Source of the DNA: Candidatus Poribacteria bacterium
GTDB lineage: Bacteria > Poribacteria > WGA-4E > WGA-3G
Assembly (NCBI GenBank): GCA_965215265.1
Contig: OZ244048.1
Location: forward strand, 4,416,001 to 4,480,000
DNA: 64,000 nucleotides
Direction: 5' to 3'
The notes under the pieces were generated by a model, which did no database searches, was not told the origin of the DNA, and saw only the letters and a list, made by a program, of their open reading frames with translations. Position numbers and translations under genes: made by a program. Below are positions 3,289 through 33,949 of this stretch, in pieces. Numbering within the stretch: the first letter of the stretch is position 1; each line of letters starts with the position of its first letter.

Positions 3289-5190
3289 TCAGCGTATTTC
3301 ACTCTCTGGCTGCGATTTGATTTCAATCAGGTGCGCGTCTTCTAATCCAGTGCGTACTTCCTCGTCATAACTGGTGACAATTACCTGGTGCTCTTTAGCA
3401 AGTTGTTGAATAAAGTCTACCATTAATGCTTTTCGTTGGGCATCTAAATGGAGCGTCGGGTCGTCGAAGACGAAGAATCCGGGGTTTCCTAAAACCTTAG
3501 CGAGTGCGACTTTAAAACAGAGATATAAAAACATCTTCTCGCTGCCGCTAAGGAGCATCAAGCTTCTATCTACGCCGTCGATCGTAAGCGATGGCAGGAG
3601 GTGTTGCCGCTGTAAGTCGACGCGTCCTTTGTCGAGTGAAGAGCCGAAGAGCTGCATGTTCTGAATCCATTGATGCAGCTCGAGTTCGACGGGCTCGAGG
3701 ATTTGATGCTGTAAGGTTTGTATGGTTTTGTCAATGCCATCACATGCGAGTTCAAGGCTGAGGCGTGTCTGTTGAGCTGCCGCTGCGGCCGTATTGACGC
3801 GCTGAAGTTCTTTGTGCCGGTCCAATCGGACGGCTTCTTTCTGTTTAAGCTGGTCAAGTCGTTTGCGCTCTTTGTCGATTTGTATTTTGAGTTGACTTTT
3901 GTCTACGGGACGGCCGGTTCGATTTCTGGGCTCGTCGGTTGCTTCTGCCGCGATGCCCCTTTCGCTGAGCCGTGCTTCTAATGTGGTGAGTTCGGTTTGA
4001 ATTTTGGGGATGGTTTGGGCAAGTTGTTCCGAGCGAGTTTGACGTGTGTGCAAAAGGCGTAGTCGTTGTTCAAGTACAGTTCGTGCGTTTAATTCCTCGC
4101 TCTGTTTGTCTAAAGTTTGTTCTTGTTCGTTGAGTTGTGTTTGCAATTCGGATTTTTGGGATTCTTTTTCGTCTATAATCCGTTGTACGACTTGAGGTTC
4201 GACTTTCTGGTAACAGGTTGGACAGTGTCCGCTGTTGTCTTGGAGAAGTCTGCGTAGGGTATCACAGATAGTTTGCAGGGTTGCGATGTGTGATTTGGTA
4301 CTGCCGATTTGTTGTATGAGAGCGTCGCGTTTTGCGTTGAGTCCAGTGGAGTCGTCGATGGCATTCTGAATTGTGTGTATCATCTCGCGGAGTTCGTCGC
4401 TATTGTTAAAACCACTTAGAACTTCAGTCTGCTCGTGCGCGAGGGCTGCGAGCTGTGTTTTCAACTGGTTTTGACGTTGCGTCCATTCGGCAATTAATTC
4501 GGTGTCGCTTGTGTGCGCGCCATATTCAGCTTCTAACTTTTTTATATTTTCTTCAATTTTCTGGATTTCAGCGGTGTGTGTTTGCTGTGCGCTGAATCTT
4601 AAGCTATTTTGATGTGAACGGATGCGGTTCTCTTCGCGCTTTGCGAGTCGGCGTGCGTCAATGAACCGCTCTCGGACGGCAATGAGTGTATCAATACCGA
4701 GGAGTGTATAGAGTATATCACGTCGGGTTGCGGATTGCCGTGCGAGGAATTCAAAGATTTCGCCTTCGCGTAGAAAGGCAGTCAAGGCGAGATGTTGATG
4801 TGCGAAACCGAAGCGCTTCTGCAATTCGGTTTCAACGACTGTGACGCGTTGCTCATCAAAAAGAATCTTCCAGCGAGAGTTTTGCTGCTGCTGTTCTCTT
4901 GCACGCAGCTGGATGCGTTTGGCCGTTGCGCGAAAAAGCTGGTACTGATAGCCGTTTCGGGCGAATTGGAGTCCTGCGGTTCCGGTATATGCGTTTGCAT
5001 GCTTCATCGCAGCGGCATCAATCCGTGGCACAATCGGTTTGCCTGTTAAGGTAAAAAAGATCGTATTGACAAGTGTGCTTTTGCCACTGAAGTTGGGTCC
5101 AAAAATCAAGTTAATGCCCTCAGTCAATTCAAAATCTTGTTTTCCGTGAAAGCAACCGAAATCTCTGAGGATGATCTTCTCTATGTACAT
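3289..5190 (-). CDS. SMC/SbcC(Rad50)-like ATPase
   Basis: Walker A GPNFSGKST, coiled coils with central CPTC zinc hook, LSGSE signature, Walker B FFVFDDPT. Confidence 0.88.
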   Translation of the reverse strand: MYIEKIILRDFGCFHGKQDFELTEGINLIFGPNFSGKSTLVNTIFFTLTGKPIVPRIDAAAMKHANAYTGTAGLQFARNGYQYQLFRATAKRIQLRAREQQQQNSRWKILFDEQRVTVVETELQKRFGFAHQHLALTAFLREGEIFEFLARQSATRRDILYTLLGIDTLIAVRERFIDARRLAKREENRIRSHQNSLRFSAQQTHTAEIQKIEENIKKLEAEYGAHTSDTELIAEWTQRQNQLKTQLAALAHEQTEVLSGFNNSDELREMIHTIQNAIDDSTGLNAKRDALIQQIGSTKSHIATLQTICDTLRRLLQDNSGHCPTCYQKVEPQVVQRIIDEKESQKSELQTQLNEQEQTLDKQSEELNARTVLEQRLRLLHTRQTRSEQLAQTIPKIQTELTTLEARLSERGIAAEATDEPRNRTGRPVDKSQLKIQIDKERKRLDQLKQKEAVRLDRHKELQRVNTAAAAAQQTRLSLELACDGIDKTIQTLQHQILEPVELELHQWIQNMQLFGSSLDKGRVDLQRQHLLPSLTIDGVDRSLMLLSGSEKMFLYLCFKVALAKVLGNPGFFVFDDPTLHLDAQRKALMVDFIQQLAKEHQVIVTSYDEEVRTGLEDAHLIEIKSQPESEIR

Positions 5191-19024: not shown

Positions 19025-20485
19025 TTAATCGTGTTCACCTAGTTCTGTATGGATGCGTTGAAAATGTGCGAGTGCGGTTTGTAAGTTCTCTGCGATTTCT
19101 GCGACTAAAGCCTGTGGGGGTGGGAGTTCTGTGATTTGTTCAACAGAATCGTCTTTGAGCCAAAAGATGTCAAGATTGACTTTATCGCGTTGGATGAGTT
19201 CGTCATAGGTGAATGCGCGGAAACGTTCGGTTTCAACGCGTGCGAGTCGGTTTTCCGGATGATAAGCGTCAATGAATTCGTCAAGATCAGCATCTTGCAT
19301 CGGTTTTGTCTTCAAGGTAAACCGTTTGTTGGTACGTAAGTCATAAATCCAGAGTTTGTCAGTCCAGGGTTCCTGTTGTGCGGGGCGTTTATCGAAAAAG
19401 AGGGCGTTCGCCTTGACGCCTTGTGCATAGAAGATACCGGTTGGTAACCTGAGGAGGGTGTGAACATCAAATTGGGCAAGTAGCTGCCGTCGAATTGTCT
19501 CGCCTGCCCCTGCTTCAAAGAGAACGTTGTCAGGGAAAACGACGGCGGCTCTGCCGTTCTGCTTCAAGACGGTTTTGATATGTTGAAGGAAGTTCAATTG
19601 CTTGTTTGATGTGGTTACCCAGAAGTCGTCGCGTTCATAACGGAGTGACGTTTCGCTTCGTTTGCTTGTGCCATTGCCAATTGTGATATTGCTTTTATTG
19701 CCGAAAGGGGGATTCGTTAAGATAACGTCGTAACGCATCCCGGGGTCTTTGGTGAGACTGTCGCCAGTCTCAATTGGACTTTCATTGCCGCCAATTCCAT
19801 GGAGGTATAAATTCATGACACAGAGTCGGACGTTATTGTCGACAATATCTGCGCCGCTGAAGGTATGAAACCTGAGGAATTCCTTTTCGTCACGTGTTAA
19901 CGAATAATTGTTAGCGATGTAGTCATGCGCAGCGAGAAAGAAGCCGCCGGTGCCGCACGCTGGGTCACAGATGGTTTGCCGCGGTTCGGGGTTCATGACG
20001 CGAACCATGGCTTTAATGAGTGCCCGAGGTGTAAAGTATTGCCCGGCACCGCTTTTGGTATCCTCAGCGTTTTTCTGTAGGAGCCCTTCGTAGATAGCGC
20101 CTTTTACATCCGTGGTCATGCCGCTCCAGGTTTCGGTATTGATGAGGTGTATGAGGCGTTGGAGGTTCGCGGGTTTTTGAATACGGTTTTGGGATTTTCG
20201 GAAAATGAGCCCGAGTAAGCCTGCTTTCGTGCTGAGTTCCTGAAGGATTTTCAGGTACTGTGCCTCAAGTGCCGGCCCGGTCTCGCTAAGAAGGCTTTCC
20301 CAATTTAGGCCGGTGGGGATGGTTGAGGGTTTATTGAAGGGCGGCTTGGTCTGTTCGTCGGCGAGTTTGAGGAAAAGGAGGTACGTGAGTTGTTCAACGT
20401 AATCGCCGTAGCTGACACCGTCGTCTCGGAGTACGTTACAGAAGTTCCAGAATTTCTGGACGAGTATTGTGGAGTGGTTTGGCAT
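19025..20485 (-). CDS. hsdM: Type I R-M methyltransferase subunit
   Basis: GQYFTPR, DPACGTGGF, NPPF, LRLPTGIFYAQGVK. Confidence 0.95.
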   Translation of the reverse strand: MPNHSTILVQKFWNFCNVLRDDGVSYGDYVEQLTYLLFLKLADEQTKPPFNKPSTIPTGLNWESLLSETGPALEAQYLKILQELSTKAGLLGLIFRKSQNRIQKPANLQRLIHLINTETWSGMTTDVKGAIYEGLLQKNAEDTKSGAGQYFTPRALIKAMVRVMNPEPRQTICDPACGTGGFFLAAHDYIANNYSLTRDEKEFLRFHTFSGADIVDNNVRLCVMNLYLHGIGGNESPIETGDSLTKDPGMRYDVILTNPPFGNKSNITIGNGTSKRSETSLRYERDDFWVTTSNKQLNFLQHIKTVLKQNGRAAVVFPDNVLFEAGAGETIRRQLLAQFDVHTLLRLPTGIFYAQGVKANALFFDKRPAQQEPWTDKLWIYDLRTNKRFTLKTKPMQDADLDEFIDAYHPENRLARVETERFRAFTYDELIQRDKVNLDIFWLKDDSVEQITELPPPQALVAEIAENLQTALAHFQRIHTELGEHD

Positions 20486-22459: not shown

Positions 22460-24951
22460 TTACTTGCGTATGAACATCTTGCGTGTAGCGGTGAAGTCCC
22501 CTGCGGTGAGCGTGTAGAAGTAGACACCGCTCGCTACCGGCTCACCGACGGCGTTTCTGCCATCCCAATACGCTGCGCGTGCACGAGCTCGGTAAAACCC
22601 CGCCTGCTGATGCCCGAGCGCCAGTGTTCGGACGAGCGTGCCGTGGGCGGAATAGATATGCACTGTCACGTCTGCCGGTTTTTCCAACTGATACGGCATC
22701 CACGTCTCGGGGTTGAACGGGTTGGGGAAGTTTGGCAAAAGGGCGTTCTCTTGCGGTGTGAGTGCGGCGAGGAGCTGCTCGAGGACCGCAAGCCCGCGCT
22801 GGACACCCGCGTCTGTGAGATTCAGCTGCCGTGCTTCAGTGAGCCAGTGCTGCACTTCTGCGCGCATCAGCGCCTGGCCCTGCTGTCCTGCTGCCGGGGC
22901 TGCCGGTGCTTTCCCGAATGCCGCCGCTACGAGCGTGAGATCCAGGATATTGACGAGTTCATCGGCGTTGACATCTGCACGGTTCTCGCCTGTCTCCCCG
23001 AACGCTGCGGCGACTAAAACGAGGTCTTGAATGTTCACAACCCATCGCCGTTGATGTCCTCCGCTGCAGCAGGGGCAGTAGGAGGACGGAGGTCCCAGAG
23101 CAGCACGGTGCCGTCACCACTCCCACTTGCGAGTGCACTGCCGTCTGGGCTGAACACTACGCTCCAGACAATATCCGTATGTCCAGTGAGAGTTTTAAGG
23201 GGTTCGCCTGTGGTGGCATCCCAGAGCCGAACGGTCTTGTCCCCACTCGCGCTGGCGAGATACCGGCCATCTCTGCTGAACGCTACGCTACTGACAGTCC
23301 CGGTATGCCCAGTGAGTGTTTTGACGGTTTTGCCTGTCTCCACATCCCAGAGCCGAACGGTCTTGTCCCCACTCGCGCTGGCGAGATACCGGCCATCTCC
23401 GCTGAACACTACGCTACTGACAGCCCACTTATGCCCAGTGAGTGTTTTGACGGTTTTGCCTGTCTCCACATCCCAGAGCCGAATGGTGTTGTCCCAACTC
23501 CCACTTGCGAGCGTGCGGCCATCTCCGCTGAACGCTACGCTCAAGACAGCATCCGTATGCCCGTTGAAAGTGCGTATTGTTTCGCCCGTGGTAAAATCCC
23601 ATACACGAACCGTGAGGTCCCCGCTCCCGCTAGCGAGAGACGTGCCATCTGGGCTAAACGACAAGCTACTGACAGGAGCTGCATGCCTAGTGAAAGCACG
23701 GATGTGTTCGCCTGTCTCTATATTCCACAGCCTAAAAGTCCAGTCCCCACTCGCGCTGGCGAGGTGTTCGCCAGCGAGGCTAAATGCTACGCTCAAGACA
23801 TCACGCGTATGTCTAGTGAAAGTGCGTATTGTTTCACCTGTGTTGACATCCCACAGCCGAACGGTTGCGTCCCAACGTCCTCCGCCGGTGGCGATGTGTG
23901 CGCCATCTGGACTAAACGACATGCTCCTGACAGTATGCGTATGCCCGTTGAAAGTGTGAAGGGTGTCACCTGTCTCTATATTCCAGAGCCGAACGGTCGC
24001 GTCATAACTCCCGGTAGCGATGTGTGCGCCATCGGGGCTAAACGCGACGCTCATGACGGGAGCCGTATGCCCGCTGAAAGTGTGGATTGTTTCGCCTGTA
24101 TTGACATCCCACAGTTGAACGGTCGCGTCATAACTCCCGGTGGCGATGTGTGCGCCATCGGGGCTAAACACCACGCTCATGACAATATCCGTATGCCCGT
24201 TGAAAGTGTGGATTGTTTCGCCTGTGTTGACATCCCACAGCCGAACGGTCGTGTCATAACTCCCGGTGGCGATGTGTGCGCCATCGGGGCTAAACGCGAC
24301 GCTCCTGACTAAATACTTATGTCCTTTGAAAGTATGAAGGGTGTCGCCTGTCTCTATATCCCAGAGCCGAGCACTTTTGTCCATACTTCCACTAGCAAGG
24401 TGTGTGCCATCTGGGCTAAACACCACACTCGTGACACCTGCCGTATGTCCTTTGAAAGTGCGTATTGTTTCGCCTGTGTTGACATCCCACAGCCGAATGC
24501 TTTTATCCTGACTCGCGCTAGCGAGGTGCCTGCCATCAGGGCTAAATACCACGCCCTCGACAGTCTGCGTATGCCCGTTGAAAGTGCGTATTGTTTCGCC
24601 TGTGTTGACATCCCACAGCCGAACGGTCTTGTCCCCACTCGCGCTGGCGAGAGACGTGCCATCTGGGCTAAATGCGATGCTCCAGACAACATCCGTATGG
24701 CCAATGAGCAGCTCGAGCGGTTCTTCGGTTTCCGCATTATAGAGCCAAATACCAATCCCGCCTGCTACTGCAAGACGCGACGCATCCGGCGAATACTGCA
24801 CATTTCTTATAAAGCCTTTACCGAGGCGTGCAATCGCCCCCTCCGGTAAACCCCACTGCGTCTCCGCAGGATACTGACCCGACGCAACCGGTAGGAAGGA
24901 ACTTGACACGATAAGACTTAGAAAACAGAATAACGTTAGGCGCTTTTTCAT
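22460..24951 (-). CDS. Secreted WD40-repeat protein with dockerin and FlgD/T9SS-like C-terminal domain; frameshifted at ~23040
   Basis: 13 clear GH...WD repeats. ORF 23035-24993 ends EDINGDGL* and ORF 22460-23038 continues VNIQDLVLV, so one dockerin motif is split by a 1-nt loss. Confidence 0.85.
23090..24720 (-). repeat. ~126-bp coding tandem repeats (WD40 units)
   Basis: High DNA identity between adjacent units; boundaries approximate. Confidence 0.85.
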
Positions 24952-25148
24952 TTGACTCTCTCCAGTCATTTTGTTTTGCCTGCATGGGTGCAAGCGGCTC
25001 TTTTTTTCGAGTTTTCCACTTGGTTCTTAAAGAAGTATACCACAGATTGTAAAAAAAGTCGATTAAGAAGCGGATGTCCTCGTTGTGCATATTATCTCCT
25101 AAAACGCGGCAGTTATCAAGTGCTTTTTTTTCAAAACTTATACTTTTT

Positions 25149-25177
25149 ATAATAACACATCCGTGAATCATTGTCAA
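25149..25177 (-). promoter_or_regulatory. Sigma70 promoter for the WD40 gene
   Basis: TTGACA-17 nt-TATTAT with TG extension. Confidence 0.7.
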
Positions 25178-25210
25178 GCAGAGAGAAATCGGTATCGCCT
25201 CGAAGAGAAA

Positions 25211-25256
25211 GAGGTGTGATAGCATTCGGCACACGGCCTACTCACTATCACACCTC
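25211..25256. repeat. Inverted repeat/hairpin between the FGE and WD40 genes
   Basis: GAGGTGTGATAG-22 nt-CTATCACACCTC, 12-bp perfect stem. Confidence 0.7.
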
Positions 25257-25381
25257 GGGGGTTATCTTTGGCCCATCTCGTTAAAAATTCACCCAATTTC
25301 TAACGCTTTTTTGAACTACCTGTTAAAAAAGTGTATCGATACAATCTGTATGCAGCTCGGACGGGGTAAAGGGGTAAAGAT

Positions 25382-28120
25382 TTAAGGCGTAACAGCCCTC
25401 GCACAACGGAACCCGAAGATGCCGTCCGTGAACGGTGGGGTACTCCTGCTGCGAGCGGCGACACGCACGTAGATAGGAGTAAGGAACCAACTCCCGCCAC
25501 GCAACACGCGAGATGAGGTAACATTTGTGTAGTTATCTATAATCTCATCCAGATTCGCGAGCGTACTGTCAGACACACCACTCAGCGGATTACGAGACGG
25601 AGACGCAGAATAGAAATCCACATTATACGCATCAAGACACCACTCCCACACGTTGCCTGCCATGTCATATAGCCCATACCCGTTCGCCGCATAACTCCCC
25701 ACAGCCGTTGTACCGCCTACATTACTAACGTAGTTCGCATCGTCCGGCGTTATCGTGTCCCCCCATGGGTATTTCTTACCAACTAACCCACCGCGTGCCG
25801 CATACTCCCACTCCGCCTCCGTTGGAAGACGCTTCCCTGCCCACGCAGCATAAGCCATCGCCGCATACCACGACACATTCATCACAGGATGGTCCCCCTT
25901 ACCCACTGGATAGTTATTACCTTCCCAACGGCTTAGGTAAAAACCATCATGGAGGGCATCCGGAATCCGCGTCTTCTGCCACTGCGGGTTCGCCAGCACA
26001 AAACTTTGATACTCGGCGTTCGTCACTTCGTGCGTATCCATATAGAACGCGTCCACATACACTGTATGCACAGGCTGCTCTTCACCATGGGCCTCGGCAT
26101 CGTTGCTGCCCATCTGGAACTCGCCCGCGGGAATGAGTGCCATCCCTCCCGGTGCCGGCGGCACGGAAGGAGTCACAGCCCTCGCACACCGGAACCCGTA
26201 GCTGCCATTGGTGTCCGTAGGGGTATCTCCGCGGCGATTAGCGGCACGCAGGAAGAGTGAATCAAAAGACCAGCTACCGCCGCGCAACACGCGATGAGAC
26301 TCAATATTGGTATAGTCCGCTACAATCTCAGCCAGATTCGCGAGCATACTGCCAGACACACCACTCAGCGGATTACTAGACGGAGACGCAGAATAGAAAT
26401 CCACATTATACGCATCAAGACACCACTCGTAAACGTTGCCGGCCATGTCGAACAGCCCATACCCGTTCGCAGCATAACTCCCCACAGGACGGGTGTTCCC
26501 TACATTCCTACCGTAGTTCGCACGCACAGAGGATATCGTCTTTCCCCACGGATACTTTAACCCTAGCCAACCGCCGCGCGCCGCTTTCTCCCACTCCGCC
26601 TCCGTTGGAAGACGCTTCCCTGCCCACGCCGCATAAGCCATCGCCGCATACCACGACACATTCACCACAGGATGGTCCCCCTTACGCTTAGGATACTTAT
26701 TACCGTCCCAATCGCTTAGGTAATTACCATCATGGAGGGCATCCGGAATCTGCGTCTTCCGCCACTGCGGGTTCGCCAGCACAAAACTTCTATACTCGGC
26801 GTTCGTCACTTCGTGCGTATCCATGTAGAACGCGTCCACATGCACCCTCCGCACAGGCTGCTCGTCAACATCGGCCTCGGCATCGTTGCTGCCCATCTGG
26901 AAGGTGCCACCGGGGATGAGTGCCATCCCTGCAGGTGCCTGCGGTGCGGGTGGCTCCGGCTCCAGTGCGGGTGGCTCCGGCGGTGTGGGTGGTTCCGGCG
27001 GTGTGGGGAGCTCCGGCGGCGGTTCTGCACTCACACAACGAAACCCGGCGAAGCTTTCCGTGAACGTCGGCTCCCTCTTGAACCTATCGGCGACGCGCTG
27101 GTAACGCACACCAGCACGCCAATTACCACCCCGCAACACCCGCAGTGACTTCACATTTACGCCTGTGTAGTCCGATACAATCTCAGCCAGATTCGCGAGC
27201 ATACTACCAGACACACCACGCAGCGGATTACTAGACGGAGACGCAGCATAAAATGTCTTATCCCACTCATCAAGGCACCACTCGTGAACGTTCCCGGCCA
27301 TGTCGAACAGCCCATACCCGTTCGCCGCATAACTCCCCACAGCCGTTGTATCGTCTACATTCCTATCGTAGTTCGCATCGTTCGCCGTTATCGTGTCTCC
27401 CCACGGATACTTCAGACCTGCCTCCCCACCCCGTGCCGCTTTCTCCCATTCTGCCTCCGTTGGAAGACGCTTACCTGCCCACGCAGAATATGCCATCGCC
27501 GCATACCACGACACATACGTCACGGGATGGTCCCCCTTACCCCCTGGATAGTTATTACCTTCCCAACGGTTTAGATACTTACCGCTGTGGAAGGCATCCG
27601 AAATACGCCCCTTCTGCCACTCGGGATTCGCAAGCAGAAAACTTTTATACTCAGCGTTCGTCACTTCGTGCGTATCCATATAGAACGCGTCCACATGCAC
27701 CAGATGCACAGGCTGCTCGGGATTCCGCGCATCAGCAGCATCGCTGCCCATCTGGAACTCGCCAGCGGGGATGAGCACCATCCCTGCAGGCACAGACGCA
27801 GGCGCCGCAGGCGCAGACGCCGCACCGTTAAACCCCTCTGCTACTAACGCCACGTCCCCTATATCCACTACACTATTCCCGTTCAAATCTGCCGAACTGT
27901 TACCGCGGGTTCCCAGGCGCGCCGCTACCAGGGCCAAATCCACTATATCCACACGGCCATCACCATTCACATCCGCATCACCTTTGACAGCCGAAAGCAC
28001 ACCGACATCCGCAGCCACGCTTACCCCTTGCGCACACACATCGCTCAAAACGCCCAAACTCAAAACCGTGAGAACACACGCCAACATCGACAACATCATT
28101 GACACACTTTTAGCAAACAT
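25382..28120 (-). CDS. Secreted dockerin + 3x FGE-sulfatase (SUMF1/C-type-lectin fold) domain protein
   Basis: GGAGGT RBS, signal peptide, DVNGDGRVDIVDL dockerin, three F(Q)MGS...RLPTEAEWE...DMAGNV.EW...RGG.W...GFRC domains with Pro-rich linkers. Confidence 0.92.
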   Translation of the reverse strand: MFAKSVSMMLSMLACVLTVLSLGVLSDVCAQGVSVAADVGVLSAVKGDADVNGDGRVDIVDLALVAARLGTRGNSSADLNGNSVVDIGDVALVAEGFNGAASAPAAPASVPAGMVLIPAGEFQMGSDAADARNPEQPVHLVHVDAFYMDTHEVTNAEYKSFLLANPEWQKGRISDAFHSGKYLNRWEGNNYPGGKGDHPVTYVSWYAAMAYSAWAGKRLPTEAEWEKAARGGEAGLKYPWGDTITANDANYDRNVDDTTAVGSYAANGYGLFDMAGNVHEWCLDEWDKTFYAASPSSNPLRGVSGSMLANLAEIVSDYTGVNVKSLRVLRGGNWRAGVRYQRVADRFKREPTFTESFAGFRCVSAEPPPELPTPPEPPTPPEPPALEPEPPAPQAPAGMALIPGGTFQMGSNDAEADVDEQPVRRVHVDAFYMDTHEVTNAEYRSFVLANPQWRKTQIPDALHDGNYLSDWDGNKYPKRKGDHPVVNVSWYAAMAYAAWAGKRLPTEAEWEKAARGGWLGLKYPWGKTISSVRANYGRNVGNTRPVGSYAANGYGLFDMAGNVYEWCLDAYNVDFYSASPSSNPLSGVSGSMLANLAEIVADYTNIESHRVLRGGSWSFDSLFLRAANRRGDTPTDTNGSYGFRCARAVTPSVPPAPGGMALIPAGEFQMGSNDAEAHGEEQPVHTVYVDAFYMDTHEVTNAEYQSFVLANPQWQKTRIPDALHDGFYLSRWEGNNYPVGKGDHPVMNVSWYAAMAYAAWAGKRLPTEAEWEYAARGGLVGKKYPWGDTITPDDANYVSNVGGTTAVGSYAANGYGLYDMAGNVWEWCLDAYNVDFYSASPSRNPLSGVSDSTLANLDEIIDNYTNVTSSRVLRGGSWFLTPIYVRVAARSRSTPPFTDGIFGFRCARAVTP

Positions 28121-28448: not shown

Positions 28449-28504
28449 TAAGCTGCGTATGCTCCGGGTGGGAAAGTTCCCAAAAAAACTACTACTTTTT
28501 ATTT

Positions 28505-28533
28505 ATGATAACACATCCGGGAATCATTTTCAA
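28505..28533 (-). promoter_or_regulatory. Sigma70 promoter, paralogous to 25149-25177
   Basis: TTGAAA-17 nt-TATCAT; spacer nearly identical to the 25149 promoter. Confidence 0.6.
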
Positions 28534-28546
28534 GCAAAGATAAATT

Positions 28547-28619
28547 CTCATTTCCGCCCATTTTTAGAATGGTTGAGAATATAGTTGTTATGGGTTGCGG
28601 TTTGTGTGAGGCGGTCAAA
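28547..28619. repeat. 74-bp direct repeat, copy 2
   Basis: Matches 21987-22060. Confidence 0.9.
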
Positions 28620-28642: not shown

Positions 28643-29947
28643 TCACGCCCGGCGGTCTATCTGATTTCCCATTCGTTCTAGCAGGCTGCTGGCGGGTTCA
28701 TCATCAGGATTTTGCGAGACCAGTTTACCAGAGAAGGCGTGCTTGAGAATCGACTGCCGCAGCCGTTCGGCGCGTCTGCTTTCTGCCGCAAGCGTCGCCT
28801 CAACCTCATCTACGATGGAGAGGTGGTGCTCAACTTCGGAGACGATGCGGCGTTGTTCCGGGAGTGAGGGGAGGGGTACAAACATTGTTTCTATATGTTC
28901 CCTTCGGAGATTATTAATGTTTATCCCGAGAGAGAGACGGGAAATCTCATTTCTATAAATAGGACTTTGGAAAAAGAGTCCGATGAATTTTCGATTAACT
29001 TCTGATGAAATTCTGACCAATCCACAAAAGGTGCCAAAACTTCCTTTGAAATCTTGATGCGCTTGAGCGGCTTTGCCGACTAGATGTTTGCTGCCACTAG
29101 ACATTGCAATGATAATATCAAATGCCTTGATGAATTGTTCAGCCTTAACTCTTCCCTGCTGAACATAAACAAGATCTTCATAGTTTAGTTGCACATTGAT
29201 ATTGTTAGCACGCAATATAGGAAGGTAGCCAGTTTTTGGAGTTTTGGAAGACTCGTTTTTCCGATAGGACACGCCACGGATAAATTCCGCAACTTCCTTA
29301 ATCTGTGTCCAGACCCACCCGTTTGGCAAATCAGACGAATGACTTTCCGCTTGAAGAGGATCCAAACGTGCTTCGCGCCATTCCTTTGTGAGTTCGCCTT
29401 CAAAGGCGGCTTTGAGGAGGGAGCGGCGATACCTTTTCACTTGTGCTTGTGCTTGTTTGAGGGCATCAACGCCTGCGTCTAATTGCGTAAACAGCGCGTC
29501 CAACTTAGCAACGATACGGCGTTGTTCCGGGAGGGGCGGAAGGGGGATTGGTGCCTTTTCTAAAAATTGGAAATGTCTTGCATATCCTTTGTTTGGAAGT
29601 GGAATCGCTTGCATAAAATAATAGAATAGCTTAGGCTCATACATTTCTTGAGGTTTAATTACTTTTATTCCGTCGGCTCCGGCGACAAAGTCAAAATTTA
29701 TATATTTGATAGTTTTGGTGTGATCTCCGAAAACTATAATAGGTAGTTGACATTCAACTCTGAGATTTTCGTTATCGGTATATCCACCGATAAAAGATAA
29801 TCCCTGATCTATAACAGGAAGTTTTCCGCTGGCTTGATAGTCTCTTTTTTTTACTTTTTTTCCGCTCACGGATACCTTATTTATGACGTGCCCAACCTGT
29901 GTCCACACCCATCCGTTTGGCAAATCATTAAAAAATGGAGTTAGCAT
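28643..29947 (-). CDS. hsdS: Type I R-M specificity subunit
   Basis: Two TRDs each starting DLPNGWVWT, PLPPLPEQRRIV conserved regions, SILKHAFSGKLV. Confidence 0.93.
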   Translation of the reverse strand: MLTPFFNDLPNGWVWTQVGHVINKVSVSGKKVKKRDYQASGKLPVIDQGLSFIGGYTDNENLRVECQLPIIVFGDHTKTIKYINFDFVAGADGIKVIKPQEMYEPKLFYYFMQAIPLPNKGYARHFQFLEKAPIPLPPLPEQRRIVAKLDALFTQLDAGVDALKQAQAQVKRYRRSLLKAAFEGELTKEWREARLDPLQAESHSSDLPNGWVWTQIKEVAEFIRGVSYRKNESSKTPKTGYLPILRANNINVQLNYEDLVYVQQGRVKAEQFIKAFDIIIAMSSGSKHLVGKAAQAHQDFKGSFGTFCGLVRISSEVNRKFIGLFFQSPIYRNEISRLSLGININNLRREHIETMFVPLPSLPEQRRIVSEVEHHLSIVDEVEATLAAESRRAERLRQSILKHAFSGKLVSQNPDDEPASSLLERMGNQIDRRA

Positions 29948-30092
29948 TTGTGATTTCCTTAGCGATACCGAGCATGAAGCGGCCTCCTTCTTGCGAAGGC
30001 AGAGATGCACGGCTTCCTGTTTTGTGTAAGCGTTTTAATCCGATTAAAGCGAGGGCTTGTAAGATGCTGTCGTAGCTTATACTGTCTAGGGC

Positions 30093-31268
30093 TTATTGAC
30101 GAACTGATTTCGTTCGTTCGGTCATGATTATATTGAGTATTTCATCTGCAATGAATAAACGATTGCGCTGCTGCCCGGTTATTTCTCTGAGTTTTCGTTT
30201 TTTTACAAGATAATCAACCCCTCGCTGAGCAGTGGGAAACGGGAGTCCACTAACCTTAGAGAATTCTGCTATTGAGATAATAGGTTTTCCAATTAACCAT
30301 TCGATCAGAAAATTGACTGCTTTCGGGACCTTCGGTCCGGTTGCGAGTGTTTTGTATTCCTCTTTTAACCTGAGTAAGTTTTGGATTGTCAAGAGTGCGT
30401 CTTCTGACTGTTGACAGATTCCGTTTAAGAAAAAGGTGAGCCAGGCGTTCCAATTTCCGGATGTGCTGACATTCAAGAGTAAATCGTAATACCTCTCTCG
30501 GTGCTGCTCAAAAAAATCAGAAAGGTAGAGAACAGGACGCGATAACAAATTTTTTTCGATAAGCATAAAAATGATAAGAAGCCTGCCGATTCTTCCGTTG
30601 CCGTCAACAAATGGATGGATTGCCTCAAATTGATAATGAACAAGGGCACATTGAATCAGGAGCGGTTCCTTTGCCGGGGAATGGATATATTTTTCTAGGT
30701 CTGACAAACACTGTTGCATTTCTGGTACTGGCGGTGGGACGTAGGTTGCTTGCATCAAAGTACAACCGGGGCTGCCAATCCAGTTTTGGCTTGTGCGCAT
30801 GAACCCCGGCGTTGCATGTTCGCCACGGACCTGCTTCATTAAGATTTCGTGTATTTCGCAAAGTAGCCGGGAACTAATGGGCATCTCCTGTGCCCTTTTG
30901 ATACCATATTCCATAGCTCTAACGTAGTTGAGAACCTCCTTGACATCAGAAATTGCCGGTGGTTCCGTTTCGTCAGCTTCGAACATAAAGAGAGTATCCA
31001 AACCCGTTTGGGTATTTTCGATTCTAGAACTTGTCACGGCTTCGCGTCGAATAAACGGACTTATTAAGACATGTGGGTTCGGGAGAAGTTGAGCTATGCC
31101 GGATAATTCTCCGATTTTGTTGTTGGCTTGAGATAAAAGATTAATTAGCTCCCCGTCCAATTCTATTTTTGGTGGCAGTGGATTCGGGATAAATGCCCAA
31201 TATGCTGGCCGGGTTATACTGCGGATACATCGTCCTGCAGTTGAATTTTTGAAGTTTTCTGGATTCAT
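30093..31268 (-). CDS. Fic family protein (N-terminal inhibitory helix, C-terminal HTH-like region)
   Basis: HPFVDGNGRIGR catalytic motif; SSRIEN fits (S/T)xxxE(G/N). Confidence 0.93.
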   Translation of the reverse strand: MNPENFKNSTAGRCIRSITRPAYWAFIPNPLPPKIELDGELINLLSQANNKIGELSGIAQLLPNPHVLISPFIRREAVTSSRIENTQTGLDTLFMFEADETEPPAISDVKEVLNYVRAMEYGIKRAQEMPISSRLLCEIHEILMKQVRGEHATPGFMRTSQNWIGSPGCTLMQATYVPPPVPEMQQCLSDLEKYIHSPAKEPLLIQCALVHYQFEAIHPFVDGNGRIGRLLIIFMLIEKNLLSRPVLYLSDFFEQHRERYYDLLLNVSTSGNWNAWLTFFLNGICQQSEDALLTIQNLLRLKEEYKTLATGPKVPKAVNFLIEWLIGKPIISIAEFSKVSGLPFPTAQRGVDYLVKKRKLREITGQQRNRLFIADEILNIIMTERTKSVRQ

Positions 31269-31303
31269 TTTTTTTCCACGAATTTCGGGTAATAAAAACG
31301 GTT

Positions 31304-31416
31304 TTATTAACGTTAAACCCACTTAACGTTAATAAGAATTGTGTTATTAACGTTAAACCCACTTAACGTTAATAAGAGACGGTTTTATTAACGTTAAGCC
31401 CACTTAACGTTAATAA
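31304..31416. repeat. Three tandem 32-bp palindromic units (period 40-41 bp)
   Basis: TTATTAACGTTAA-(A/G)CCCAC-TTAACGTTAATAA at 31304, 31344 and 31385. Confidence 0.95.
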
Positions 31417-31449
31417 GAGACGGAACTCCGTTGCAACAGCTTTATGTTA

Positions 31450-31478
31450 AGTTTAGCATAAATTTGATTTGAATGCAA
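31450..31478 (-). promoter_or_regulatory. Putative promoter of fic
   Basis: TTGCAT-17 nt-TAAACT with TG extension; near-identical to 33950-33978. Confidence 0.55.
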
Positions 31479-31485
31479 TTCGGAT

Positions 31486-33894
31486 TTAGGAGACTAACTG
31501 TTGCGTGAGGTCCTTTAATATTGTCTCTAACTCGTGCCCGAAGAGTTGGTAGACTTTGGCTCCGTTTCCGAGTGCTGCAAAAGGTGCGTATTCAAAATCG
31601 TCGATGCGGATGTCAAGCGAGATGGCAATGTGCTCGCGTATCATCTCAAGCCATGTGTGTTGTTCCTCAGTGAGGGTCTGCGTGCTGATCCAATCTTCAA
31701 ATCGTTGGTTAACAGTTGCGGCGAAAGGCTCGAGATAGAAGTTTTCGCCGGTGGCGAACCGAATCAGAGAGATGATGTCATTAGGCTGAGTGCCGTTGCC
31801 TGTGACGCTTGTGGGAGCTTTACGTGCGTAGGCTGCCCAGAGGTTTTTCACAGTCAAGACGTAAGGGGGTTGTTTGAGTGCGTCTTCAAGTTCTTTGATG
31901 GTTTGTTCGGTGAGTGTGCCTTGGGCATTGTGGCTGTTACAGAGAATTCGGAGTGCGGGCAGTTGTTCTCTATTCTGTTGAATGAACTGTTTGAAACGGT
32001 TGAGCTGCGAGAGGACTTGTTCTGCTGTTTGGGTTTTGAGTCCTGCGCTAATCACTTCATCTTCGCTAATGTCATCAATAAGTTGTTCGGTTTGGCGTGT
32101 AGCGGTTTTCGTCTGCTTAGGTTGATGCTCGAGGGGTTGTGAATCGGTTTTCTCTGCGTCGCAGACACCGACAGCGTCAACGATAAAGAAGTGTGTTTTT
32201 TGGGTAGCGTCGCCGGTGACGGCTTGCAAGTCGTCTGGGCTGATGGTTCGGGTGCCGCGGCCTTTCATCTGTTCGAAATAGCCGTTAGATCTCACTGCAC
32301 GCATGAAGAGGAGGCACTCAAGCGGTTTGATGTCGGTGCCGGTGGCAATCATGTCGACACTGACAGCGACCCGGAATCGGGGGTCTGTTCGGAATTTGGC
32401 GATGCGAGCTTCTGGTTTATCGCTCTGGTAGGTAATTTTTTGGCAGAAGTCGTTTCCTTTAGCGAATTCCTCCCGGACGATGTGGACGATATCCTCTGCG
32501 TGTGAGTCGTCTTTAGCAAAGATAATGGTTTTAGGGACGACGGTTCTGTCGGGGAAAATATCTGTGAAAAGTTTGGCTTTGAAGGTTTGGATGACGGTGC
32601 GGATCTGGTTAACGGAGACTACGTCTCGATCCAACTGCGTTTCGTGGTATTCGACATCTGCGTCGAGTTCTGCCCAGTTGATCTGTCGTGTTTCGCGATT
32701 CCGTTTTTGGACGTAATGCCCGGCTTCAATATTGCTACCGGCTTGTGTGATTTTGGTTCGGATGCTATAGACATAATAGCCGACGTTCACATTGTCTGCG
32801 ATGGCTTGTTGGTGGCGATATTCGGAGACGAGGTTCTGGTTGAAAAAAGCGAGTGTCTGTTTGTAGGGGGTTGCGGTGAGTCCGACAATGAAAGCGTCGA
32901 AGTATTCCAAAACGCGTCTCCATTTGCCGTAGATGGAGCGGTGGCACTCATCGACAATGACGATGTCAAAGGTATCAATCGGGATGTGAGGATTGTAGTT
33001 AAGTAGGGATGGGGGTTCCGTCTCAGTATCGTTCTCAAAAGCGGATTTTTCCTCAGAGGTAGTGTCGTACTCGGTTTCGCTTTTCAGCATGGAGTAGAGG
33101 CGTTGAATGGTAGTAATGCAGACCTGGCTTGTCGAGTCAATGACGTTGCTGGTGAGATGTTGGACGTTGTATAGTTCAGTGAATTTGCGTCCATCGTCGG
33201 GTGCGGTATAGGCTTGGAATTCACGGAGGGTTTGCCTACCGAGGTTACTCCGGTCGACGAGGAAAAGAATTCGCTTTGCACGTGCGAATTGGATAAGCCG
33301 GTATGTTGCAGTGACGGCGGCATAAGTTTTGCCGCTGCCGGTGGCCATCTGTATTAAGGCGCGTGTGCGTGCTTCTGCGAGCGATTTTTCAAGATTTGTG
33401 ATTGCCTCAAGTTGACAGTTCCTGAGGTTTCCGTTTTCTAGGGGCGGGATGTCATTTTTGAGTCTGTACCGGAAGGTTGTCGGTTCGACGATTTCCCGGC
33501 GAAGCGCCTCGGGTGTATGGAACGTAAAGAGTGGGCGTGAGCGGGGTTCCGGGTCGCGTGTATCCCGGAAGCATGTTTCAACGCCGGTGGATTGATATTC
33601 AAAAGGACAGCCGGAAAATATGGGCAGTGCCTCTGGTAAATTGGCGCGGTACCGTTCTGATTGCTGAGAGGCACCACTAAGGGTTGTACCGGCTTTTTTG
33701 GCTTCAAGTAATCCGACTGCGATGCCGTCAACAAAAAGAAGGTAGTCGGCTTTTTCCGCACTGTTCAACCGGTATTCGCGGATGGCGACACCGAGCCCTT
33801 CAGCTGCGGCGCGTTCAGCATAATCATAAATGCGCCATCCGGTTGCTTCAAGCATCTGATCTATATTGCGTCTGGCTTGCTGTTCAGGAGTCAT
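31486..33894 (-). CDS. hsdR: Type I R-M restriction subunit (EcoEI-like)
   Basis: ADY...LEAKK nuclease, MATGSGKT, DECHRS, GLTATP, QMKGRGTR, EcoEI-type C-terminus. Confidence 0.93.
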   Translation of the reverse strand: MTPEQQARRNIDQMLEATGWRIYDYAERAAAEGLGVAIREYRLNSAEKADYLLFVDGIAVGLLEAKKAGTTLSGASQQSERYRANLPEALPIFSGCPFEYQSTGVETCFRDTRDPEPRSRPLFTFHTPEALRREIVEPTTFRYRLKNDIPPLENGNLRNCQLEAITNLEKSLAEARTRALIQMATGSGKTYAAVTATYRLIQFARAKRILFLVDRSNLGRQTLREFQAYTAPDDGRKFTELYNVQHLTSNVIDSTSQVCITTIQRLYSMLKSETEYDTTSEEKSAFENDTETEPPSLLNYNPHIPIDTFDIVIVDECHRSIYGKWRRVLEYFDAFIVGLTATPYKQTLAFFNQNLVSEYRHQQAIADNVNVGYYVYSIRTKITQAGSNIEAGHYVQKRNRETRQINWAELDADVEYHETQLDRDVVSVNQIRTVIQTFKAKLFTDIFPDRTVVPKTIIFAKDDSHAEDIVHIVREEFAKGNDFCQKITYQSDKPEARIAKFRTDPRFRVAVSVDMIATGTDIKPLECLLFMRAVRSNGYFEQMKGRGTRTISPDDLQAVTGDATQKTHFFIVDAVGVCDAEKTDSQPLEHQPKQTKTATRQTEQLIDDISEDEVISAGLKTQTAEQVLSQLNRFKQFIQQNREQLPALRILCNSHNAQGTLTEQTIKELEDALKQPPYVLTVKNLWAAYARKAPTSVTGNGTQPNDIISLIRFATGENFYLEPFAATVNQRFEDWISTQTLTEEQHTWLEMIREHIAISLDIRIDDFEYAPFAALGNGAKVYQLFGHELETILKDLTQQLVS

Positions 33895-33949
33895 TTTTTG
33901 AATGGATTGCGGCAAATCCGCACCGGACAATTGTTAACTTTAGTTGATA

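Follow-up and report, generated by a model that had tools for sequence, protein, structure and literature searches.

The closest described systems are diversity-generating retroelements (DGRs) whose template repeat (TR) serves variable regions (VRs) in genes elsewhere in the genome. In the portions of the respective reports considered here, the DGR of Trichodesmium erythraeum IMS101 has one TR and 12 targets, some of which carry silent non-adenine changes and were judged no longer targeted (PMC4143802); Treponema denticola has seven remote targets, the most in the survey of Wu et al., which also includes a triple-FGE (formylglycine-generating enzyme) target (PMC5758913); and DGR4 and DGR5 of Thiohalocapsa PB-PSB1 serve live triple-CLec (C-type lectin) targets in trans (10.1101/2023.09.22.558884). 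On these accounts, remote, multi-VR and degenerate FGE targets are already published for Treponema, Trichodesmium and Thiohalocapsa.

Poribacteria are mostly sponge symbionts, and a literature search for DGR, retroelement or FGE-sulfatase in this group returned no report, though survey supplements may list such elements. We analyzed a window of 64,000 nucleotides (contig OZ244048.1 of assembly GCA_965215265.1, positions 4,416,001 to 4,480,000) from a Candidatus Poribacteria genome assembled as one contig of 4.83 Mb (genome G000, contig C1), and within it a minus-strand gene for a 912-aa protein. We assign a probability of roughly 0.7 to the reading that this gene carries the imprint of a DGR as a real, DGR-written remote target that has likely been retired. 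New relative to the published systems are the host group, the scale, the layers of template states and the cassette remnant behind the gene.

Domain make-up and variable tips

The gene is a single reading frame with an ATG start and a GGAGG site closely upstream (Table 1). Three FGE-sulfatase stretches and one dockerin exceed the Pfam cut-offs in its product. The three FGE scaffolds are 75–80% identical, whereas the 24-residue tips running from RGGxW to GFRC match at just 6–8 of 24 positions. Domain 3 matched TvpA (PDB 2y3c) by sequence (E 6.8e-15), and its model, built from a 41-row alignment after a single-sequence fold (pLDDT 31) was discarded, resembles formylglycine-generating enzyme (2q17, 6muj; TM 0.78 to 2q17, 37% identity); the VR sits in the C-terminal loop of an FGE-subtype CLec fold, as in known DGR targets. 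In true FGE, the two loop cysteines following RGGS have a catalytic role; unlike in that enzyme, both are missing from all three domains, and the product is likely not an FGE enzyme. Eight cohesin matches lie over cut-off in the genome, as does the dockerin of this protein, making dockerin-mediated display plausible. Judged from sequence, the gene likely encodes a secreted protein that binds ligands through three domains of fixed specificity and is likely anchored, via its dockerin, to a cohesin-bearing partner.

Table 1 Features of the 912-aa gene and its 3′ flank (positions within the window; differences are from the TR)
Feature	Position	Strand	Remark
CDS, 912 aa: signal-peptide-like N-terminus, dockerin, three FGE/CLec domains	25382..28120	-	
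Signal-peptide-like hydrophobic stretch, aa 1-30	28031..28120	-	called by eye
Dockerin type I (PF00404)	27839..27973	-	28.3 bits, cut-off 22.9
FGE/CLec domain 1	27035..27784	-	Pfam and scaffold comparison
VR1	27031..27142	-	25/35 adenines, 19/77 other bases differ; most decayed class; frozen
Pro/Glu-rich linker	26930..27030	-	from sequence
FGE/CLec domain 2	26186..26929	-	without counterpart in two-domain relatives
VR2	26182..26293	-	20/35 adenines, 6/77 other bases differ; frozen
FGE/CLec domain 3	25403..26146	-	model pLDDT 77; TM 0.78 to FGE 2q17
VR3	25399..25510	-	23/35 adenines, 10/77 other bases differ; class-B template state
VR3 3′ constant end, stop codon, pyrimidine tract (IMH-like)	25361..25414	-	tract common to other targets
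Decayed target hairpin	25341..25360	-	-1.4 kcal/mol, z -0.2
Match to cognate target 3′ end and start of target-to-avd spacer, 141 bases	25274..25414	-	82%
Match to sequence behind TR, 208 bases	25072..25279	-	82%; directly abuts the preceding match

A distant cassette, its imprint and its remnant

A PF00078 profile search of the genome gave a single RT match, at 1.42 Mb and 3.02 Mb from the 912-aa gene. This RT is an intact 356-aa open frame with YVDD (C1:1419886-1420944), within the gene order two FGE genes, avd, RT, TR; as PF00078 itself is not DGR-specific, its assignment as DGR-type follows from the avd and TR context. The avd gene is likewise intact, its product scoring 120 bits against NF033474 (cut-off 80) and also matching PF22296. 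Downstream of the RT, the TR (C1:1421035-1421146) is non-coding and AAC-rich, includes AAY codons and contains 35 adenines among 112 bases, a capacity of about 10^17.6 possible peptides. A second template in this genome was considered and rejected, as blastn of the TR region (43 hits) returned only one AAC-rich copy.

Among taxon-titled matches, the two RT loci closest to this one belong to Poribacteria genomes (83% and 82%), and its nearest relatives outside the group are largely cyanobacterial (55–60%). Of the 112 family genomes, 11 have an Avd match above cut-off, the RT as query matched 3 of 41 relatives (G000 itself counted), and homologous TRs exist in relatives. One cassette, in relative G006, has a truncated avd fused to the TR, no RT match and two VRs with 0–1 non-adenine differences; it is a recently disabled DGR.

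All three VRs of the 912-aa gene differ from the TR preferentially at its adenines (Fisher p 4e-8 for VR3 and for VR2; p 4e-6 for VR1 aligned without gaps, where a gapped alignment gives instead 22 adenine and 16 non-adenine differences and 6 gaps), and none matches the present TR almost perfectly outside its adenines. The bias persists in the variable interior alone (p 3e-6, 8e-5 and 6e-5 for VR3, VR2 and VR1) and, in VR3, at codon positions 1–2 alone (20/31 adenines versus 4/44 other bases). All 12 AAY codons of the TR are changed in VR3 with the third base retained in 12/12, and the third base is retained in 10/12 in VR2 and 9/12 in VR1. A comparison of domain 3 with the cognate scaffold gave no adenine bias (32/144 versus 91/478). 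Together, the codon-position, interior and scaffold controls support an adenine-specific process. The preliminary description, made from the window only, had rightly proposed a DGR target of FGE/TvpA type served from afar, with no local RT, and the genome-wide search it suggested for a template repeat beside an RT or avd gene located TR, RT and avd together elsewhere in the genome; its account of domains alike up to RGGxW and divergent until GFRC, and of NNY codons in the tips, agrees with the counts above, and the three tip peptides read exactly as it quoted them.

Behind the gene, the two abutting matches of Table 1 form a remnant of the cassette that is devoid of avd, RT, TR and Rpn body. 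The match to sequence behind the TR contains a long inverted repeat (at which a terminator scan found no terminator), a promoter-like site (25149-25177, 11 of 12) and the first Rpn/YhgA codons. Such a shell lies behind 10 VR loci, five of them with a full Rpn gene, and may have arisen because copies of the cassette lost avd-RT-TR again and again, or may be a mobile 3′ unit that seeds target sites. Two orphan units (C1:2998871 and 4393899, minus strand) stand behind unrelated genes; each comprises the last 20 or so VR bases, the IMH-like tract, the hairpin and an Rpn/YhgA gene, and their VR remnants differ from one another at template adenines. Sixteen Rpn/YhgA (PF04754) copies on C1 are 88–100% identical to the copy behind the TR (24 tblastn hits), and among the Rpn/YhgA clusters five immediately follow a VR and one follows the cassette. 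Rpn proteins are reported to promote recombination and to act as nucleases against phage (PMC5350276, PMC10400941); among the papers listed by a literature search, none links DGRs to Rpn/YhgA.

Also on the minus strand of the window, a WD40-repeat gene (23035-24993, 13 repeats) lies behind the promoter-like site of the remnant, followed by an overlapping FlgD-Ig frame (22460-23038), the pair resembling one split secreted protein. Further downstream is a type I restriction-modification specificity subunit (19025-20485, Pfam). Upstream of the 912-aa gene are a second copy of the promoter-like repeat (28460-28560; C1:4444543, 85% identity) and three genes whose labels were given by eye (28643-33930): a methylase, a Fic-like gene and a restriction subunit.

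Histories of the terminal and inner variable regions

As established for BPP-1 and presumed here, RT/Avd makes an error-prone copy of the TR RNA, with the errors falling at adenines, and this cDNA takes the place of a VR that precedes an IMH-like tract and a DNA hairpin. A paralogue at 1.562 Mb, 93% identical to the 912-aa gene over its length, allows the terminal and inner VRs to be compared: VR3 is 27% divergent (26/35 TR-adenine sites, 4/77 others), versus 3–7.5% in the other segments, VR1 and VR2 included. The terminal VRs have therefore diverged almost only at template adenines since the two genes split, and because the divergence is concentrated there, VR3 was rewritten after duplication and the inner tips were not. 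The rewriting would likely have occurred in trans, under an older state of the cassette template.

Six of the non-adenine differences of VR3 (TR columns 12, 18, 21, 48, 50 and 54) are the majority state of a class of 13 VRs, termed class B, and four remain relative to that majority state. Among eight well-aligned TRs of relatives (that of G080, misaligned by a fixed-length cut, was left out of these column-state counts), column 54 is C in 8/8, column 50 is T in seven and column 43 is G in seven, as in VR3; the class-B state is on that basis likely older than the present TR, and the class-B differences likely mark this older TR state. A class-B template was found neither in G000 nor among nine relative TRs (one misaligned), and we infer that it existed. 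The caveat of the preliminary description, that synonymous non-adenine differences imply different templates or old divergence, was apt, as these differences fall into classes most likely marking older template states. Its suggestion that one protein may hold several variable regions is not supported if these are taken as live: VR1 and VR2 are common to paralogues, and VR3 differs from the TR at 10 non-adenine sites and lies ahead of a broken hairpin.

The cognate target hairpin has an 8-bp stem (-7.7 kcal/mol, z -3.2); its counterpart behind VR3 is broken, and the inner VRs continue into coding linker. In BPP-1, the hairpin stem structure is reported to be required (PMC3240598); a low activity independent of the hairpin is kept there. 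Thirteen of the 27 terminal VRs of the genome have a stem of at least 7 bp, and their median number of non-adenine differences is 3, versus 7 in the rest; these medians are descriptive only, because the copies are related. Three class-B terminal VRs have perfect 7-10-bp hairpins despite 8 non-adenine differences, so hairpin loss is not the sole route to retirement. For comparison, the survey text considered gives non-adenine differences in 23% of DGRs, with up to 11 per target, some suggested to be part of mutagenesis (PMC5758913). Following the rewriting of VR3, its hairpin would have decayed and the template would have drifted at six positions, leaving a fixed VR3 allele.

The inner VRs have a separate history. 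VR1 is common to five paralogues and identical or near-identical in two-domain relatives from other assemblies; against the two closest paralogues, VR2 differs at 0/35 and 0/35 TR adenines and VR1 at 2/35 and 2/35. Because they are almost unchanged across paralogues, VR1 and VR2 are inherited rather than live; these inner tips likely originated at other loci and entered the gene within domains that were already complete. Taken together with the linker, domain 2 shows 2.4–3.1% divergence among three paralogues, versus 6.6–8.8% in domains 1 and 3. VR2 matches a younger template state than VR3 though it is common to paralogues, and either an extra recombination step or two co-existing templates are therefore needed; the simplest reading would be a later spread of the finished domain-2 module among the three paralogues by recombination. 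In one paralogue (C1:1263755, 1264574), domain 3 still has the initial variable codons of the shared VR2, whereas its 3′ part is rewritten with the current template, likely because domain 2 was duplicated and the copy was then partially homed; the VR2 of this paralogue carries an internal duplication.

Relatives in other assemblies show related arrangements. P0017, P0135 and P0021 share the N-terminus and domain 1 (92–94%) and carry a single further domain, which in P0017 and P0135 is closest to domain 3 (87%), with a different terminal VR. These two-domain relatives and the uneven domain divergence point to an apparent shuffling of finished domains. The two-domain cluster P0032 (15 of 25 members listed) has three inner-tip versions, compatible with shuffling or with occasional inner rewriting, and in the dockerin-triple-FGE clusters P0013 (8 members) and P0016 (6) all three tips are nearly invariant. 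Both tips of P0019 and P0137 are identical to those of P0136 (1.69-Mb gene), across three assemblies, with proteins 93–94% identical to the G000 copy, a pattern that hints at selection keeping frozen tips. Outside G000, no full-length DNA match was found among 111 family genomes (single-domain matches of 66–74% only), and neither the 912-aa protein, sought as four start variants, nor the 1.793-Mb paralogue has an exact match in the protein collection; the relatives compared thus include no orthologue with the same three domains.

We weighed other origins for VR3. A second DGR cassette with its own template, later lost or present in other strains, might have written the class-B tips, VR3 among them; this would directly explain why the near-current VR2 is shared and the class-B VR3 is not, and would suit both the cassette-like remnants behind 10 VR loci and the two avd genes of relative G110. 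We nonetheless consider it unlikely, given that intermediate and mosaic VRs connect class B stepwise to the current template, that the distal gene beside the cassette is itself class B, that the TR is identical in read-derived contigs of runs X1, X3 and X5, and that none of the nine relative TRs (one misaligned) fits VR3 better than the TR of G000 does (13–17 non-adenine differences versus 10).

VR3, and perhaps the inner VRs, could instead be low-rate live targets of the present template in a protein that is still diversifying. The RT and avd are intact, the 3′ constant ends are near-perfect (one mismatch from the TR in VR3, none in VR2), the 1.793-Mb paralogue has an inner VR that departs from the TR at just 1 non-adenine site, and multi-VR targets are live in Thiohalocapsa, according to the part of the report of Dore et al. 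considered (10.1101/2023.09.22.558884). Against this, full homing from the present TR would erase the 10 non-adenine differences of VR3, its hairpin is broken, and VR1 and VR2 are common to paralogues. The inner VR of the 1.793-Mb paralogue is itself nearly conserved in P0003 and P0122, whose best match that paralogue is (80–81%): the second tip is 3 residues apart, while the terminal tip is wholly different and the first tip is not the same either. Runs X1, X3 and X5 (two studies) contain a 184-base contig that matches VR3 with its flanks exactly, an identity seen in contigs only and lacking an informative control because no change is seen in X1 and X3 even in the 1.796-Mb target, which matches the TR perfectly and has its hairpin intact. 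The contig was absent among the pieces listed of X6; contig comparison drops rare variants, and one or more runs are possibly the source sample. The avd-RT-TR segment was covered without differences in X1, X3 and X5 and partly in X6. No contig with the cognate VR allele of G000 spans positions 3596-3604 in any of the four runs (identifiable contigs there are paralogues), at most a weak hint of hypervariability that is given no weight here. A pattern scan of metagenome contigs with a 23-base stretch of the window gave 0 hits. On balance, continued diversification of the protein appears improbable.

A comparably low probability attaches to the idea that the locus was never a direct target, VR3 having been written elsewhere and imported by gene conversion. 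Domains are swapped among relatives, and the domain-3 scaffold is a mosaic whose nearest neighbors change along its length (nearest neighbors only, as the scaffold tree is poorly resolved; six domains, five of them broken or doubtful, were left out, and the list used held 36). The genome offers no donor, however: VR3 is unique, with the nearest VR 24 positions away. An IMH-like tract and a hairpin remnant are present behind the stop codon, and the closest scaffold is that of a paralogue of the same template class. Lastly, ordinary divergence of FGE-fold paralogues under binding-loop selection with no retroelement, for which the similar loop frame of true FGE enzymes could be cited, is refuted by a non-coding AAC-rich template adjoining RT and avd and by an adenine bias that holds within codon positions 1–2 and the interior, keeps 12/12 AAY third bases and is absent from the scaffold.

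The target family and its place among known systems

The 912-aa gene is one member of an unusually large target family of a known kind of system. Across 27 loci, 40 VR-like segments bear the mark of the single TR, 27 of them terminal and 13 inner (43 rows minus the TR, four non-aligning rows with gaps of 95-100 and 842330 with 24 non-adenine differences, plus three blastn rows); non-adenine differences number at most 2 in 8 and at most 5 in 16. Among relatives, G004 has 18 VR-like segments in 16 examined loci (15/24 matches fetched), G128 five, and G024 and G006 three each. Seven VRs with few non-adenine differences (C1:1419164, 1795933, 2357312, 2359646, 3732561, 4150273 and 4795203) have 3-base insertions or frame-shifting indels near AAC runs, which resemble the template slippage described in the part of Wu et al. 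considered (PMC5758913). At one locus (C1:996500-1007500), seven genes for FGE targets are interspersed with reading frames labeled by eye as dynamin-like/GTPase and TPR.

Tentatively, and at somewhat less than even odds, we propose a two-tier receptor library in Poribacteria. New tips would be written only at terminal, hairpin-flanked FGE domains; useful tips would be fixed by hairpin loss or template drift; and recombination among some 40 near-identical scaffolds would move finished domains inward to build multivalent proteins, with sites seeded by a mobile 3′ unit. This proposed unit would consist of IMH tract, hairpin and Rpn/YhgA nuclease gene, equivalent to a cassette from which avd-RT-TR is missing. 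If this were true, Poribacteria would possess a write-fix-shuffle receptor system, and the genome would preserve past templates and the specificities selected under them in a form that can be dated, on a scale several times that of published target sets served by a single template. The genome also constitutes a natural experiment, in which a single template, four layers of template states and 27 target loci, some with intact and some with broken hairpins, occur together, and thereby makes testable both the on/off switch of remote targets and the way in which cellular DGRs gain numerous targets and retain them.

Set against the described systems, as far as the portions of those reports considered allow, the Poribacteria DGR resembles that of Trichodesmium erythraeum IMS101 in serving many C-terminal FGE-sulfatase targets, a subset of them degenerate, from one TR (PMC4143802). 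It differs in that most of its VR-like segments have >2 non-adenine differences, in its tandem domains and intact RT, and in targets with secreted-type dockerin, cohesin or lipoprotein N-termini where those of Trichodesmium are mostly kinases. With the triple-FGE target of Wu et al. and the targets of Thiohalocapsa DGR4 and DGR5, the 912-aa gene shares three tandem VR-bearing CLec domains served in trans; unlike those, it has no vWA or MoxR context among the annotated ORFs of the window (WD40, FlgD-type, type I restriction subunit). Treponema denticola TvpA (PDB 2y3c) is likewise an FGE-subtype CLec target in a system with remote targets (PMC5758913), from which G000 is set apart by a protein of three domains plus a dockerin, about four times as many loci and layered template states.
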